Source of the DNA: Dehalococcoidia bacterium
GTDB lineage: Bacteria; Chloroflexota; Dehalococcoidia; UBA2979
Assembly (NCBI GenBank): GCA_965219085.1
Contig: OZ244720.1
Location: forward strand, 2,208,001-2,272,000
Direction of reading: 5' to 3'
Length of the DNA stretch: 64,000 nt
Below the pieces are notes generated by a model. That model saw nothing but the letters and a program-made list of their open reading frames with translations, was not told the origin of the DNA and searched no databases. The translations under genes were made by a program, and so were the position numbers. Position 1 is the first letter of the stretch; every line of letters begins with the position of its first letter. Below, piece after piece: positions 29,728 to 64,000 of this stretch.

Positions 29728-31614
29728 CTACTTGTCGAGCCAGACGTTGAACGCCTCGTACCCCGTGTCGAGGTAGAAGTGTCCGCTGGCGGGCCCGCGG
29801 ATGTAGCGGAGGGCGCGCACCCACGGCTGCTGCAGTATCGCGCTGTACCCGCTGGCCTTCTCGATGCGGTACATCTGGTCCAGCACCTTGTTCCAGACGT
29901 TACGGGCGAGCTCCGTCCGCGCCTCGGGGTCGAGTTCGACCTGGTGCTGCGAGGCCCAGACGTCGATCTCCGGGTCGTTGATGCGGTTGCGGTTGCCGCT
30001 CGACTCCGAGTGGTTCAGGCCGTACACGAAATGATCGGCGAACGCGGCCTGACTGGCCCAGCCGTCGTACGCGTCGGTGGTGCCCGAACGCGTGGTCCAC
30101 TGCGAGTTGTACTCGTTGTAGTCGCGGCTGAGCAGGTTGAGCGTGACACCGATCCTGCTGAACTGGTCCAGCAGCACCTCGTCCGGAAGGGTGTTCCCGA
30201 CATTGCTGTAGTTGTAGTACATCATGTCGAACTCGAGGTCGGAGGCGCCGGCCGCGTCGAGCAGCTTCTTCGCCTCGTCGGGGTCGTAGCGCCACCACTT
30301 GCCGAGCACCCCGGACTCGGGTGTCGGCTCGTCCTCCCAGAAGAACCGCCAGTCCATCTGCGGCAGGATCACGCCCCCGCCCGAGTAGATGATGTCGAGC
30401 ATCTCCTCGCGGTCGTAGGCGAGCGAGAGCGCACGCCGGATGCGCACGTCCTCCCAGCGCGACAGGTCCATGTTGAAGTTGATCGCGAACGTCGACGCGA
30501 ACAGCGGGTACGAGAAGTACTGCGTGTCCGGGTTCGTCTCCAGGATCTTCTCGAGGTCGTCGGAGGTAGCTGCCGAGAGCCCATAGTCGTGCCGCCCGAC
30601 CCGGAACTGCGCCTCGGCGGCGGCCAGGTCGAGCACGAACGGCAGCTCCCAGCGGTCGATCTTGACCGGGCCCCGGAAGTAGTCCGGGTTCTTGTCGAAG
30701 GCGCCGCCGACGCCTCCCGTCCAGTCGTCGAGGATCATCGGGCCGGTGCCGATCGCCCTCGTTATGATCTCCCCGCTATCGACCAGTTCCGGCCCGTGGA
30801 CCGTGCTGAACGCGGTCGCGAGCGGGAAGATGAAGTCCGGCGTTGGCTGCTTGAGCGTGATCACCAGCGTCGCGGCGTCGGGCGCTTCGATCGAGGTGAC
30901 GTGCAGGAAGTTCGAGCGGTGCGGGCTTCCCTTCTCGGAGTAGCGGTCGAACGAGAACTTCGCGTCCTGTGCGGTCAGTTCACGCCCGTTCACCGGGGGG
31001 ATGTTCTGGAACTTGACGCCCGGCTGTATGTGGAAGGTGTACGTGAGCCCGTCCTCGGAGACCTCCCAGGACTCGGCGAGTTCCGGCACGAGGTCGTTGC
31101 GGGCGTATGGATCGGAGTCCCATCCGCTGTAGACGCCGATCACGCGGTTGTAGACCGCGTTGACTCCCGTCATCGTCCCGCCGGCCGCGGCAATGGCCGG
31201 GTCGAGCGGGCCGGGGTCGAAGGTGAAGCGCTGCACGAGCGTGCCGCCGAACTTCGGTTCCTTGTCGGGCTCCTCGATCTGCCACGGCACGAAGCGCCCG
31301 GCTGCGGTGGTGAAGCCCGTCGCCCGCTCGATCGTGGCGACGGTGTCCTCGGCCGCCACCGTCGCGGCCGGCTCCGCCGTGTCGTCCGTGGCGTCATCGT
31401 CGGCGTCCGAAGCCGCCTCGCTCGTGGTAGTCGTGGTCGTAGTGGTCGTCGTCGTGGTGCTGCTGCCCGCGTCGTCATCATCGTCGCCACGGCAGCCGAC
31501 GAGCGCCGCGGCGGCCAGGCCAAGGCCGCCGAGGATCCCGCCGCGCAGCAGCGCCCGCCGATGGAGTGTGAACGCGAACGGTTCCCGGAGTGTTGGGTCT
31601 GAGTGGTCTGTCAC
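29728..31614 (-). CDS. Family 5 ABC substrate-binding protein, Tat lipoprotein (array copy D)
   Basis: RRALLRGG...AAALVGC; same core motifs. Confidence 0.9.
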   Translation of the reverse strand: MTDHSDPTLREPFAFTLHRRALLRGGILGGLGLAAAALVGCRGDDDDDAGSSTTTTTTTTTTTTSEAASDADDDATDDTAEPAATVAAEDTVATIERATGFTTAAGRFVPWQIEEPDKEPKFGGTLVQRFTFDPGPLDPAIAAAGGTMTGVNAVYNRVIGVYSGWDSDPYARNDLVPELAESWEVSEDGLTYTFHIQPGVKFQNIPPVNGRELTAQDAKFSFDRYSEKGSPHRSNFLHVTSIEAPDAATLVITLKQPTPDFIFPLATAFSTVHGPELVDSGEIITRAIGTGPMILDDWTGGVGGAFDKNPDYFRGPVKIDRWELPFVLDLAAAEAQFRVGRHDYGLSAATSDDLEKILETNPDTQYFSYPLFASTFAINFNMDLSRWEDVRIRRALSLAYDREEMLDIIYSGGGVILPQMDWRFFWEDEPTPESGVLGKWWRYDPDEAKKLLDAAGASDLEFDMMYYNYSNVGNTLPDEVLLDQFSRIGVTLNLLSRDYNEYNSQWTTRSGTTDAYDGWASQAAFADHFVYGLNHSESSGNRNRINDPEIDVWASQHQVELDPEARTELARNVWNKVLDQMYRIEKASGYSAILQQPWVRALRYIRGPASGHFYLDTGYEAFNVWLDK

Positions 31615-60337: not shown

Positions 60338-60979
60338 TCAGTCCGTTCGCGTCACGAACGCCTCGCCGTACTGACGGGCGTGCTCCGCGCGCCGCACGTC
60401 GAGGGCGGCGCGCCCCTCTGGTGTATCGAGGCCGTCGAGGAGCATCACGAGCGCATCCTCGTCGTTGTCTTTGTAGTAGCGGCGCAGCCGGCCGTGGCTG
60501 CGGAACCCGTAGCGCGCGTAGAGGTTGACCGCGCGCGCGTTCGTCGTGCGCACCTCGAGCGCGACGCTGTCGAGGTCGGCCGCGACGGCGAGGTCGCACA
60601 CGGCCAGCAGCAGCGCCTGGCCGATGCCGAGCCCGTGGTACTGCGGCGCAACGGCGATGGTCACGAGGTGCAGTTGGTCGTGGGTGAACCATGCGCCGGC
60701 GTAGCCGCCGATCGGCGCGCCGGCCGGGCCGAACGGCAGGCGGTCGGGGAGGAACTGCACCATCCGCGCCCACCAGCCGCGCACCTGCGGCGGCGCCGCG
60801 GCCGACTCCCCGACATCGGCCACGAGGAACTGCGCGAGCCCGTTCAGCAGCTCGCGCCGGAATCCCGAGCGAGGACTCTGCGATCCGTAGGCGTCGCGCT
60901 CGACGCGCACCGCGGCGCGCACGTCGCCGGGACGCATCGGGCGAATGGTGACGGTGCTCGGGCGAGCGAGGGCGCACAT
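60338..60979 (-). CDS. rimI: RimI-like GNAT N-acetyltransferase
   Basis: TIAVAPQYHGLGIG, LEVRTTNARAVNLY.RYGF...G..RRYY.DNDEDALVM; ATG 60979. Confidence 0.85.
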   Translation of the reverse strand: MCALARPSTVTIRPMRPGDVRAAVRVERDAYGSQSPRSGFRRELLNGLAQFLVADVGESAAAPPQVRGWWARMVQFLPDRLPFGPAGAPIGGYAGAWFTHDQLHLVTIAVAPQYHGLGIGQALLLAVCDLAVAADLDSVALEVRTTNARAVNLYARYGFRSHGRLRRYYKDNDEDALVMLLDGLDTPEGRAALDVRRAEHARQYGEAFVTRTD

Positions 60980-61093: not shown

Positions 61094-61552
61094 ATGGAAG
61101 ACCACAACGAACTGACGCTGAGCGACGCCGAAGGCGAAGACCTGCCCGACGAGGCGCTCGCCGAACTTGCCGCGATCGGGGACGACGAGCCCAACGCCGA
61201 GGCCACCGCCGAGCACACCTCGGAGGAGATCGCGAGCCTGCGCGCGGACCTCGACGCCGAGCGCGCCGCCCGGCGGACCGCCGTCGCGCGTTACCGCGAT
61301 GCGGTGCTGGCGGCGGAGCCGGCGCTGCCGCCGGAGCTCATCGCCGGCGACAGCCTCGCCGAGGTCGACGCCTCGGTGGAGGCGGCGCGGCGCGCCGTGG
61401 CGCAGATCCGCGAGCGCCTCGCGACCGAGGCGGACGAGGCCGCCGCGCGCGGCTTCCCCGTCGGCGCACCCGGCCGCCGGGAGCCGAGCGCCGAGGGGAT
61501 GTCGGCGACCGAGAAGATCGCGTTCGGACTGGAGCGACGCGCCGCAAGCTGA
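61094..61552 (+). CDS. Putative capsid scaffolding protein
   Basis: Acidic coiled coil, PPELIAG.S..EVDASVE, PVGAPGR, MSATEKIAFG; directly upstream of the capsid gene; GGAGG RBS. Confidence 0.65.
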   Translation: MEDHNELTLSDAEGEDLPDEALAELAAIGDDEPNAEATAEHTSEEIASLRADLDAERAARRTAVARYRDAVLAAEPALPPELIAGDSLAEVDASVEAARRAVAQIRERLATEADEAAARGFPVGAPGRREPSAEGMSATEKIAFGLERRAAS

Positions 61553-61600
61553 GCCCTCGTGCCCTGGCGCCCTGGCGCCCTGGTGCCTTCGCGCCCTCGC
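61553..61600. repeat. Six imperfect 8-bp tandem repeats GCCCT(G/C)G(C/T)
   Basis: GCCCTCGT GCCCTGGC GCCCTGGC GCCCTGGT GCCTTCGC GCCCTCGC. Confidence 0.75.
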
Positions 61601-61674
61601 CCGGCCGCAGGTGGCCGGGCGGGGGCCGTCCGGAGCATCCGATTCGTCGATGCGTGCCACTTTGACCTTCGGAC

Positions 61675-61688
61675 AGAACACACGTTCC
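61675..61688. promoter_or_regulatory. Putative LexA (SOS) box
   Basis: AGAAC-ACAC-GTTCC matches the GAAC-N4-GTTC motif of Firmicutes, Actinobacteria and Chloroflexi; adjacent to a TAGGCT -10-like hexamer (61691-61696). Confidence 0.65.
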
Positions 61689-61756
61689 CATAGGCTCCCT
61701 CCCACAACGCATCGAAGCAGGCGCGCGGCACGAAACCGCGCGCGGGGAGGGACGCA

Positions 61757-62647
61757 ATGGCGCTGACACTGACCGAGGGGGCCAAGCTCTCCAACGACGT
61801 ACTCCAGCAGGGCGTGATCGAGACCGTGATCAAGGACAGCCCCATCCTGCAACGGCTCCCGTTCATCGAGATCGTCGGGAACGGGCTCACCTACAACCGC
61901 GAGAACGCCGCGGCCACCGCTGCCTTCTACGCCGTCGGGGACACGTGGGCGGAGAGCACGCCGACGTTCACGCAGGTGACCGCCTCGCTCACCATCCTCG
62001 GCGGCGACGCGGACATCGATAACTACATCGCGCGCACCCGCAACAACGTCCAGGACATCGAGGCGGCCGTCGTCGAGCTCAAGGCGAAGGCCGTCCAGCA
62101 GCAGTTCGACGAGACCTTCATCGACGGCGACGCCGACACCAACTCGAAGGCCTTCAACGGCATCGACGAGCTGTGCGCCGCCGGCCAGACCACCTCGATG
62201 GGCAACAACGGCGCGAAGCTCACCCTCGACAAGCTCGACGAGCTGGTGGACCTCGTGCGTGGCGGGAAGCCGGAGATGCTGCTCATGTCGCGTCGCTCGC
62301 GGCGCACGCTGAACAGCCTCGCGCGCGCCGCGGGCTCGGGCGTGGTGGAGCACGACCGCGACGAGTTCGGCCGCATGGTCGCGTACTACGACGGCATCCC
62401 GATCGGGGTGAGCGACTACATCAAGGACACCCAGAGCCGGGGCACGGCGCGCAACACTTCGGTGATCTACGCGCTGCAGTTCGGCGAGGGCGCCGTCGCG
62501 GGGCTCACCGCGCCCGGCGGCGTGACCATCGAGCGCGTCGGCGCGCTGGAGACGAAGGACGCCACGCGCGTGCGCGTGAAGTGGTACGTCTCCGTCGCGC
62601 TCTTCAACGAACTCAAGCTCGCGAAGCTCACCGGCGTGCAGGCCTAA
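61757..62647 (+). CDS. Phage-like major capsid protein (HK97 fold)
   Basis: MALTLTEGAKLSND, SPILQRLPF, LTYNRE, ILGGDADID, FIDGD....KAFNGI, RVKWY; followed by virion-type genes. Confidence 0.85.
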   Translation: MALTLTEGAKLSNDVLQQGVIETVIKDSPILQRLPFIEIVGNGLTYNRENAAATAAFYAVGDTWAESTPTFTQVTASLTILGGDADIDNYIARTRNNVQDIEAAVVELKAKAVQQQFDETFIDGDADTNSKAFNGIDELCAAGQTTSMGNNGAKLTLDKLDELVDLVRGGKPEMLLMSRRSRRTLNSLARAAGSGVVEHDRDEFGRMVAYYDGIPIGVSDYIKDTQSRGTARNTSVIYALQFGEGAVAGLTAPGGVTIERVGALETKDATRVRVKWYVSVALFNELKLAKLTGVQA

Positions 62648-62686
62648 GCGGTCCGCACGCCCCATCGACACGCCCGGGAGGCGACC

Positions 62687-63319
62687 ATGCACCTGACCGA
62701 GATGCGGACCCGCGTCCGCCGCGACCTTCGAGACACGGACCCCGCGGACGAGCGCTGGTCCGACGACGAGCTCGACCGGCACATCGAGCGCGCCGTGCGC
62801 GAGCTCTCGCTCGGCGCGCCCGTCGAGGCGGTCGCGACGCTCACGACGGCTGCCGGCAGCCGCGACCTCGACGTGTCGGCGCTCGCCAGCCGCGTCTCGA
62901 TCGACGCGGTCGAGTATCCGGCGGGGCAATACCCGCCGGCGTTCGCGGTGTTCTCGTCATGGGGCGACACGCTCACGCTGGTCGTCGACCGGGCGCCGCA
63001 CGCGGGCGAGCGCGCGACCGTCTCCTACTCGAAGCTCCACACCCTGACCGACGACGCCTCGACGCTGCCTGCGGCCCTCGAGGAGATCGTCGCGACGGGC
63101 GCGGGTGGGTACGCCGCGCTGGAGTGGGCCTCGTTCGCCACGAACCGCGTCAACGCGGGCGGGACGGACACCTGGCGGCACTATCACATCTGGGCGCAGG
63201 AGCGCCTCGCCGCCTTCGCACGCGCGCTCGCCAAGCACGGGCGCGAGCGGCGGGTGCGGTCGCGCCAGCTCTACCGGCCCGCGGGCGACGCCGTTGGCGC
63301 GCCCGCCCCGGGCGGGTAG
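62687..63319 (+). CDS. Putative head-tail adaptor protein
   Basis: LTEMRTRVRRDLRD....RWSDDELDRHI..A N-terminus resembles head-completion proteins; follows the capsid gene. Confidence 0.6.
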   Translation: MHLTEMRTRVRRDLRDTDPADERWSDDELDRHIERAVRELSLGAPVEAVATLTTAAGSRDLDVSALASRVSIDAVEYPAGQYPPAFAVFSSWGDTLTLVVDRAPHAGERATVSYSKLHTLTDDASTLPAALEEIVATGAGGYAALEWASFATNRVNAGGTDTWRHYHIWAQERLAAFARALAKHGRERRVRSRQLYRPAGDAVGAPAPGG

Positions 63320-63325
63320 CCCGCG

Positions 63326-64000
63326 ATGCGCGGGCTCACACCCACGCTCGACGCGGCTCGGCGCTCGCCGAGCGTGCAGCCGTACCTGCGCGTGCAGCTC
63401 CACGACCGCGACGTCGGCTCGCTGCGGCTGCGCTGGCGACGCGTCTACTCGGGCCCCGAGCCCGACGGCCCGTGCGCCGCGGCGGTCGCCGCTGACGGCG
63501 CGCTGCTGCGGGTGCGCATCGACCCCTCGACGGGCGCGCTCACGCGCCAGCGCGTCGCGTCGCCGGGCGCGGTGAGCGACTACGGGGCGTGGACGCCCGT
63601 GGCGACCGTCGCCGTCGGCCCGCGCGTCGGCCTCGCCGCGCGCGGCACGCGCGGCATGATCGCCTCGGTGCGGGCCGATGGCGTGACCGTCGACGTGCGC
63701 GAGAGCACCGACGGCGGCGCGACATTCGGGGCGGCCAGCGTGCTCGCGGTCGCGTCGGGAGTGGTCACCGCGGTTGCATGCTCGATGGCCCCGGACGGGA
63801 CTGCCGCGGTGATCTACGCCGTTGGCGGCGTCGTCTACGCGGTCCGCCGCTTCGGCACCGGGCGCTGGCTCGCGCCGGCTGCGTGGTCGCGCTCGCTCGC
63901 GACGGTGAACGCGCTCGCCGCGTCATTCGAGGTGGACCACAACGTGCTGATCTCCGGCACGAATGCCGCCGGCGACACCGGCGTGTGGTCGACGATCTAC
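63326..64000 (+). CDS. Phage-like structural protein, beta-rich (runs off right edge)
   Basis: Manual translation MRGLTPTLDAARRSPSVQPYLRVQLHDRDVGSLRLRWRRVYSGPEPDG..., with an Asp-box-like ESTDGGATFG; open to the window end. Confidence 0.65.
   Translation, partial: MRGLTPTLDAARRSPSVQPYLRVQLHDRDVGSLRLRWRRVYSGPEPDGPCAAAVAADGALLRVRIDPSTGALTRQRVASPGAVSDYGAWTPVATVAVGPRVGLAARGTRGMIASVRADGVTVDVRESTDGGATFGAASVLAVASGVVTAVACSMAPDGTAAVIYAVGGVVYAVRRFGTGRWLAPAAWSRSLATVNALAASFEVDHNVLISGTNAAGDTGVWSTIY

Follow-up and report, generated by a model that had tools for sequence, protein, structure and literature searches.

The 64,000-nucleotide stretch of a Dehalococcoidia bacterium chromosome analysed here (the window, G000:C1:2208001-2272000; positions are window coordinates unless G000:C1 is stated) ends in a compact set of phage capsid, adaptor and tail-hub genes, which we call locus B, and the matching terminase and portal genes lie 0.60 Mb away in the same genome as a packaging operon, locus A (G000:C1:1664564-1668585). 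Judging from their sequences, we consider it likely that the two chromosomal loci together encode a domesticated, DNA-packaging particle that has a minimal tail, is inherited vertically under putative LexA control and by its genomics resembles a gene transfer agent (GTA). The term GTA-like describes the genomics; any particles, cargo and transfer are predictions from the genes. The host genome consists of one contig of 3.306 Mb with a GC content of 69.8%. A first-pass annotation of the window had proposed a vertically inherited, split and host-regulated virion system rather than a recent prophage, and the results below support it in each of these respects.

Locus B is bordered by the host genes rimI and ruvB and has the following features.

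60338-60979, minus strand: rimI (top-scoring of 9 genomic matches to TIGR01575, at 90.2 bits where the cut-off is 86.4; matched by GNAT Pfam families as well)
61094-61552, plus strand: scaffold-like open reading frame (ORF), 152 aa, acidic and helical, 114 bp from rimI
61676-61687, no strand assigned: LexA-type (Cheo-like) box GAACACACGTTC, a perfect GAAC-N4-GTTC, 70 bp before the capsid gene start
61757-62647, plus strand: HK97-fold major capsid protein (MCP), 296 aa (PF05065 2.6e-12, PF20911 3.1e-8, phrog_212 1.5e-72)
62687-63319, plus strand: head-to-tail adaptor, 210 aa (PF24175 SU10_adaptor 1.5e-8, 35.8 bits against a cut-off of 27)
63326 to window-equivalent 65302, plus strand, running past the window end at 64000: p658 gene, 658 aa, predicted tail-tip protein
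65312-65518, beyond the window, directly after p658: p68 gene, 68 aa
65528-66622, beyond the window, minus strand: ruvB, with its own LexA-type box at 66662

Scaffold, capsid, adaptor and a further structural gene had been reported close to rimI, and all four are there, three of them with family or fold matches and the scaffold by position. The adaptor passes the Pfam gathering cut-off for SU10_adaptor over residues 1-189 of 210. The MCP gene is single-copy and is the sole Phage_capsid match in the genome; its profile returned 0 matches against PDB sequences at 0.001, and its nearest relatives in a phage collection were the MCPs of Xp15, PaMx28 and FA70-like phages, at ~40% identity. No Pfam or PHROG family matched the scaffold-like protein at a useful E-value, and it is labelled so because it directly precedes the MCP gene, as in phages Xp15 and FA70.

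The host gene rimI lies outside the system and is its conserved left neighbour throughout the genus and in 15/80 loci, a count which, like all those out of 80 (or 79) below, refers to the best 80 of 596 stretches confirmed in a one-genome-per-species scan; genes were counted in them at a query coverage of at least 50%. Beyond ruvB follow fabF, a hydrolase, a Sir2 protein and other ordinary metabolic genes. The border had been described as devoid of mobility and packaging functions, which agrees with what we found: no integrase, repressor, replication, lysis, terminase or portal gene occurs on either side of locus B, no tRNA was found in the locus stretches L001 or L046, and no exact direct repeats flank the locus as att sites would, the only repeats being imperfect, GC-rich and attributable to chance. 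Integrase, replication and lysis modules just beyond the window, which would have pointed to a prophage, were looked for and are not there. Base composition is host-like, as noted before, with GC of 0.70-0.76 compared to 0.698 for the genome and GC at third codon positions (GC3) of 0.93-0.96, the same as in neighbouring genes.

The terminase and portal that are missing from the window, and whose location elsewhere in the genome had been proposed as a check, were located in locus A.

G000:C1:1664564-1668585, minus strand: packaging operon with s1-s4, large terminase (TerL), helix-turn-helix (HTH) protein and portal
G000:C1:1664564-1665826, minus strand: portal (PF05133 4.1e-11, phrog_64 7.5e-20)
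locus A, upstream of the portal, minus strand: HTH protein, 127 aa
locus A, minus strand: TerL, 474 aa (phrog_7579 5.3e-9)
locus A, upstream of TerL, minus strand: four small ORFs, s1-s4, two of them with predicted membrane helices (hydrophobic stretches seen by eye in s1 and s4)

Stops and starts overlap along the operon, from the small ORFs through TerL and HTH to the portal. The portal was found through PF05133, the portal family PF04860 having no match in the genome. Terminase_6C matched 6/11 members of the TerL family, and in the TerL alignment (A4) the Walker-A-like, Walker-B-like and acidic columns, motif names assigned by eye, were invariant; against PDB, the TerL profile reached only E 0.86-0.91, to terminase nuclease domains. 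None of s1-s4 had a family in Pfam or PHROG searches. The best conserved of them, s3, is a candidate small terminase (TerS), and the TerS and holin ideas for the small ORFs follow from position, conservation and the hydrophobic stretches seen by eye. Locus A is flanked on one side by a PDZ protein and ABC transporters and on the other by a conserved 323-aa ORF without a family and an insertion sequence (IS) transposase, unrelated to the system. No integrase, replication gene, tRNA, att repeat or element-encoded repressor was found at locus A.

By sequence, p658 matched only phrog_1887, at 0.0016, and its structure was modelled with AlphaFold from an alignment of 13 orthologues (mean pLDDT 91.8). 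In Foldseek searches of the model against PDB, the C-terminal ~340 residues showed a baseplate-hub fold of the gp27, Mu gp44 and P2 gpD kind, with matches at E 1e-9 to 2e-16 that included the extracellular contractile injection system hubs 7b5h (2.3e-16) and 7aef and Mu gp44 (1wru), 43-kDa tail proteins, the 80alpha hub 6v8i, T4 gp27 (1k28) and VgrG; for the hubs of the injection systems, Mu, 80alpha, T4 and VgrG, E ranged from 1e-12 to 2e-16 over ~340 columns. The N-terminal ~300 residues form a predicted beta-propeller that matched pseudaminidase 2w38, NHL repeats and lectins, and the top BFVD matches of p658 were annotated 'Tail protein', 'Phage protein D' and 'Mu gpP'. On this model, the further structural gene of the first-pass annotation is a propeller-plus-baseplate-hub tail-tip protein. 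It was present in 63/80 loci and diverges fast, with 29-81% identity compared to 53-94% for the MCP. One homologue (G131, L191:12003-13721), in a genome that is among the closest to the named Dehalogenimonas proteins, matched in two pieces, residues 1-538 and 617-669, where a deletion or frameshift is possible. The small protein p68 was conserved in 47/80 loci and had no Pfam or PHROG family, and a profile search of PDB returned nothing below E 0.3. A gpV/gp5-type spike was considered for p68 and dropped after hhalign of its alignment (A3) against P2 gpV gave a probability of 1.4%.

The split between the two loci varies among relatives. In L156, s3, TerL, HTH, portal, scaffold, MCP, adaptor, p658 and p68 are contiguous over ~10 kb, and nearly so in L121, L123, L137 and G059. 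A distance of 10-30 kb separates the two halves in the family's other genera (G020, G035, G034), and one of 350-800 kb in the genus itself (G018, G004, G001, G009, G006). Across the 80 loci, TerL was within 10 kb of the MCP gene in 4 and the portal in 6. The claim of a split system is confirmed for the genus, while in some other families the halves are adjacent. The wide separation in the genus, together with the missing replication and integration genes, suggests that a particle would not carry its own gene set; the packaged DNA would then be chiefly host DNA, which is the genomic signature of a GTA. In the lineages with ~10-kb contiguous genes, self-packaging is physically possible.

We assessed how widely the system occurs among relatives at increasing phylogenetic distance. 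The MCP was found in 17/18 genomes of the genus and in 39/61 relatives, and portal and TerL were each found in 46/61 relatives. At the class level, 216/401 genomes had an MCP match at E <= 1e-20 (171/299 among high-quality genomes; the 216 include the unpublished G271), almost always in single copy, which agrees with the recurrence of capsid and downstream proteins across Dehalococcoidia stated in the first-pass annotation. Presence was strongly lineage-structured, with 22/25 genomes in each of families f6 and f16 and 11/12 in f21. In a phylum-wide sample the MCP matched in 34/301 genomes at E <= 1e-10, of which 15 belonged to other classes (47-57% identity). More than 5,000 relatives are present in protein databases, and MCP homologues include proteins that NCBI names as Dehalogenimonas alkenigignens, D. 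etheniformans and Dehalogenimonas sp. THU2. The best 80 stretches comprised 79 metagenome-assembled genomes with Chloroflexota-lineage labels and 1 labelled Aminicenantes; one of the stretches came from a Tepidiformaceae metagenome-assembled genome (L102).

Gene order and flanks were conserved along with the genes. The order scaffold-MCP-adaptor-p658 was kept in 20/20 loci examined, the scaffold-like gene was present in 41/80 loci and the adaptor in 67/80, and adaptor, p658 and p68 always followed the MCP gene in that order. The rimI and ruvB flanks were kept genus-wide and in one other family, and ruvB was within 10 kb of the MCP gene in 20/80 loci. Several local variants were seen within this frame. 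In the window, a short run of near-repeats, GCCCTGGCGCCCTGGCGCCCTGGTGCC, lies just past the stop codon of the scaffold-like gene (61553-61580, by eye). A conserved 129-aa ORF, possibly a decoration or accessory protein, directly follows the MCP gene in 21/80 loci (e.g. L033:10497-10886) and had no match in G000 (tblastn, E <= 0.01). Other lineage-specific extras between MCP and adaptor are a jelly-roll-like ORF in G050 (by eye) and an IS-type transposase ORF in G006 (L025:10482-11492), both absent from G000. G018 (L023:8790-9830), G008 and G003 have an insertion of about 1 kb, with no convincing ORF, that separates the scaffold and MCP genes.

Divergence of the system followed that of the host. 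Across 24 genomes with full-length matches to MCP, portal, TerL and RuvB (G009, G015, G017, G012, G034, G042, G043, G047, G057 and others were left out for truncated, split or missing matches), MCP identity to G000 was tightly related to RuvB identity (r = 0.95, slope 1.02), such that the MCP diverges as slowly as RuvB, and the relationships were steeper for portal (r = 0.98, slope 1.36) and TerL (r = 0.96, slope 1.34). MCP identity across families of the class was 55-75%, a conservation equal to that of RuvB. Quick IQ-TREE phylogenies of 28 genomes with both genes (for G055, the RuvB stretch contains one internal stop) both recovered the family, the genus and its two subclades, and shared 11/25 splits; patristic distances were correlated overall (Mantel ρ = 0.78) and within the family (ρ = 0.90). 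MCP GC3 also followed RuvB GC3 over a range of 0.60-0.99 (r = 0.93, n = 23 genomes). Conserved synteny, RuvB-tracking divergence, host-tracking GC3 and trees congruent within the family all accord with the vertical inheritance proposed at first.

Selection was assessed from the ratio of nonsynonymous to synonymous substitution rates (dN/dS, NG86 method) between G000 and two close relatives, G018 and G014, with these values (G018/G014).

MCP: 0.20/0.21
adaptor: 0.16/0.14
p658: 0.24/0.29
p68: 0.07/0.09
scaffold-like: 0.36/0.31
portal: 0.08/0.13
TerL: 0.17/0.24
ruvB (host gene): 0.14/0.10
acyl-CoA synthetase (host gene): 0.11/0.15
rimI (host gene): 0.22/0.26

The system genes are under purifying selection, with dN/dS of 0.07-0.36 like that of neighbouring host genes, NG86 estimates of dS being unreliable at GC3 near 0.95. 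Within the sister subclade, dN/dS was similar, with 0.07-0.20 for MCP, 0.10-0.25 for portal, 0.16-0.27 for TerL and 0.08-0.15 for s3, and s4 looked relaxed (0.4-1.7). This was the dN/dS check suggested by the first-pass annotation, and with no integrase, att site or tRNA at hand it speaks against a recent prophage.

The LexA-type box that had been noticed upstream of the capsid gene is a perfect GAAC-N4-GTTC site, and a second one precedes the packaging operon at G000:C1:1668635; the core AGAACACACGTTC is identical at the two places. The motif is that of the Gram-positive Cheo box, and a Cheo-type motif has been reported for Dehalococcoides LexA. Both lexA and recA are present in G000. The ORFs of recA, dnaE2, ruvB, a RecQ-like helicase and an imuB-like Y-family polymerase each have a perfect box 4-42 bp upstream, and lexA itself has a site with one mismatch upstream. 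From the genes that the boxes precede, we infer that GAAC-N4-GTTC is the putative LexA operator of this host. The window holds 2 perfect sites compared to 0.66 expected; the second, GAACTTCGGTTC at 31249-31260, is probably a chance match and falls within a long minus-strand ORF (G000:C1:2237728-2239893).

In relatives, a perfect box preceded the packaging operon in 11/20 genomes examined, in 9 of them within ~70 bp of s1, with its arms kept and all four N4 spacer positions varying; three further loci (L038, L040, L041) had none. Upstream of the MCP gene, in positions -48 to -108 relative to its start codon, the box was perfect in 4/79 loci and had at most one mismatch in 32/79 (background per 150 bp: 0.007 and 0.056, respectively), the usual variant being G[C/T/G]AC-N4-GTTC. 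Perfect boxes also occurred before the scaffold gene in 11 loci and before ruvB in many. The boxes at both loci and their conservation suggest host regulation of the kind first proposed. A scan for the sigma-70 consensus returned 0 promoter-like sites before MCP or s1, and readings of -35 and -10 elements around the boxes are by eye only. The other box-preceded genes, which were checked for a third particle locus, comprised RecQ-like, DUF5131, TIR/ThsB-like, LuxR-type regulator, XRE-type repressor and metabolic genes, with no further phage structural or lysis gene among them.

A history and a mode of action compatible with these observations can be outlined. A phage head-and-packaging module would have entered an early member of the class, lost all but about nine genes and come under LexA control; rearrangements would then have pulled its two halves apart, while selection kept the system in most lineages and not in all. 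Upon DNA damage, RecA would be activated and LexA would cleave itself, such that both operons are derepressed. Locus B would supply the shell and a minimal tail tip (scaffold-like protein, HK97 capsid, adaptor, hub with beta-propeller, and p68), and locus A the packaging machine (s1-s4, large terminase, HTH protein and portal). Procapsids would assemble on the portal, the terminase would fill them with DNA, and adaptor, hub and p68 would close the portal vertex.

Several observations weigh against such a functional, LexA-controlled particle. The MCP was not found in whole families (f23, 0/25; f25, 0/11; f30, 0/8), and lesions were present in 4/18 genomes of the genus (G009, G012, G015, G017): neither G015 nor G017 had a portal match, G012 and G015 had a short TerL, that of G009 was truncated and that of G017 contained a TAG stop, and the chromosomal, syntenic MCP of G012 (C1:2061070-2061894) was in two pieces of 80-81% identity. 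Such decay, together with absence from whole families, is evidence against a universal function. The TerL family assignment draws on weak profile matches, PF03237 and PF03354 having none in G000, and solitary TerL paralogues occur: G056 has three (G056:C1:434151-435503, 2248152-2249513 and 2896757-2898109; L184-L186), 45-49% identical to the TerL of G000, without portal, HTH or MCP beside them and one of them ~2.5 kb from ruvB, and G037, with 3 TerL matches, likewise has solitary copies. No tail tube, tape measure or sheath was found near either locus, tail families not having been searched for genome-wide, and no recognisable lysin was found near either, which leaves release and delivery unexplained. 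Deep congruence between MCP and RuvB, assessed with one genome per deep lineage, was weak (ρ = 0.31, p = 0.04) and leaves room for old transfers between families, and the unreliability of dS at high GC3 tempers the selection estimates. As for regulation, perfect boxes are just modestly above expectation genome-wide (39 compared to ~25.6), the scaffold gene of G000 has none, and in the sister subclade of the genus both loci are without a perfect box, a GC-rich palindrome taking its place. The two genomes with the MCPs closest to the named Dehalogenimonas proteins also lack a perfect upstream box, and another trigger may apply there.

G012 also carries, on a small contig (C4:3591-4478), a 97%-identical MCP together with a 95%-identical RuvB, and its second MCP looks like the product of a mixed bin beside a real pseudogene rather than a duplication.

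That the system is an independently domesticated GTA of Dehalococcoidia and some other Chloroflexota, made by about nine genes, triggered by LexA, packaging chromosomal fragments upon DNA damage and delivering them to kin, is a reading that we advance tentatively, at somewhat short of an even chance. The system shares with GTAs phage-derived structural and packaging genes that reside in the chromosome between host-gene flanks, and vertical co-inheritance under purifying selection, deep congruence being weak.

Next in plausibility, though unlikely in our judgement, is a PBSX-like defective prophage kept for killing or lysis, for the release of DNA as a public good, or for phage defence as a decoy, without injecting DNA. 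Vertical inheritance, SOS boxes and a conserved terminase would be its signatures too, and delivery is not assured with a tail that comprises only adaptor, hub and p68, neither a tube nor a tape measure having been found near the loci. The propeller resembles glycosidases and lectins, and p658 diverges fast, as surface-binding proteins do. Against this, we recognised no toxin or lysin gene near either locus, and the strong conservation of portal, TerL and s3 (dN/dS 0.08-0.27) argues that DNA packaging itself matters. PBSX and related SOS-induced defective prophages of Bacillus are chromosomal, species-wide, induced by DNA damage and package host DNA fragments, features that the present system would share; PBSX differs in that its contractile tail is complete and it encodes an Xre repressor of its own, whereas the tail here is minimal and no element-encoded repressor was found beside the loci.

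A mobile element, either a capsid-forming satellite or a small temperate phage, with repeated insertion near ruvB and tails taken from a helper, in the manner of capsid-forming phage-inducible chromosomal islands (cf-PICIs), is very improbable. Such islands carry terminase, portal, capsid and connector genes without a tail, which is the gene set seen here; some lineages have the genes in one run of ~10 kb, ruvB is nearby in a quarter of the loci (20/80), and deep congruence with RuvB is weak. However, cf-PICIs have an integrase, regulation and replication modules and mobility bounded by att sites, and neither locus has an integrase, a replication gene, an att repeat or a tRNA. The halves are hundreds of kilobases apart in the genus (350-800 kb), divergence and GC3 follow the host, the MCP is single-copy, and no helper head genes were seen (one Phage_capsid match; none for PF04860, PF03237 or PF03354). 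Least probable of all is a decaying, functionless prophage remnant that only looks conserved because the relatives are close: the lesions in 4/18 genomes of the genus, the many families in which it was not found and the absence of most phage modules fit it, yet the MCP is as conserved as RuvB at 55-75% identity across families of the class, all nine core genes have dN/dS of 0.07-0.36 in two independent subclades, the catalytic-looking TerL columns are invariant and the operator-like boxes are conserved while their spacers vary.

The domesticated packaging particle can also be set beside known systems. With the gene transfer agents of Alphaproteobacteria of the RcGTA type, which are viriforms, it has in common phage-derived head and packaging genes in the host chromosome, vertical inheritance, purifying selection, genes scattered over several loci, the lack of replication and integration genes and control by a host regulator, which is putative here. 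RcGTA is linked to the SOS response through LexA. In contrast to RcGTA, the present system occurs in another phylum and appears independently derived, its nearest MCPs being those of Xp15, PaMx28 and FA70-like phages; adaptor, hub-propeller and p68 replace the tube, tape measure and baseplate; and the putative LexA operators are situated at the structural operons themselves instead of working through a CtrA/GafA-type cascade. It has ~9 genes compared to ~15 in the RcGTA head-tail cluster, which includes tail tube, tape measure and hub/megatron, and falls outside that family, a separation made without direct comparison of RcGTA proteins. Xanthomonas phage Xp15 and Clostridium phage FA70 share with it a full-length MCP identity of ~40% and the order TerL, portal, scaffold-position gene, MCP, but are complete ~55-kb phages with long tails, replication and lysis genes, unlike the ~9 core genes of host-like composition here. 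The contiguous integrase, att, immunity, replication and lysis functions of an inducible temperate prophage were not found at these loci. An encapsulin nanocompartment, in which an HK97-fold shell encloses a cargo enzyme and has neither portal nor terminase, does not describe the system either, as the MCP here occurs and evolves together with portal, terminase, adaptor and hub.

Literature searches on Dehalococcoidia and Chloroflexota gave no description of such a system. For Dehalogenimonas and capsids, they turned up only an unrelated filamentous element. A term search of a cryo-electron tomography paper on Tepidiforma (PMC10284905) gave 0 occurrences of phage, capsid or virus, and a preprint (bioRxiv 10.64898/2026.09.15.751708) describes filamentous IME1 elements without tailed-phage hallmarks, unrelated to the present genes.

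Three further perfect-box sites in G000 lie outside the two loci. Boxes at G000:C1:2468337 and 2468840 flank a gene for a 133-aa TIR/ThsB-like protein (PF08937 4.4e-14) and a 360-aa hydrolase-like ORF, and the former may be an SOS-linked defence gene. Another box, at G000:C1:1242998, is located ~4 kb upstream of lexA, with a DUF5131 gene (phage Gp37/Gp68-like, 9.3e-107) on one side and the gene for a CorC/PaeA-like transporter on the other. At G000:C1:2638273 a box stands 50 bp before an XRE/RstR-like repressor ORF, which adjoins a 211-aa ORF whose N-terminal domain is LexA-like (TIGR00498 3e-8, below cut-off); the two may form a separate SOS-linked regulatory pair.

GTAs are known from a handful of lineages (Alphaproteobacteria, Bartonella, Brachyspira, Desulfovibrio and Methanococcus), and we know of none in the phylum Chloroflexota. 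If the GTA reading is true, an independent Chloroflexota GTA would indicate that the domestication of phage heads recurs across deep bacterial lineages, here with particle production tied directly to LexA, and its roughly nine genes with a tube-less tail would be the smallest gene set for a DNA-packaging particle known to us. Because MCP homologues occur in named Dehalogenimonas, the idea is testable in culture. Oceans, the subsurface and contaminated aquifers all harbour Dehalococcoidia in abundance, and the dehalogenase genes that these bacteria have acquired horizontally are well known. If they had a transfer vehicle of their own, this would matter for how DNA is exchanged among their genomes, and the SOS response would be coupled to DNA repair or exchange at the population level in a globally abundant, mostly uncultured class.

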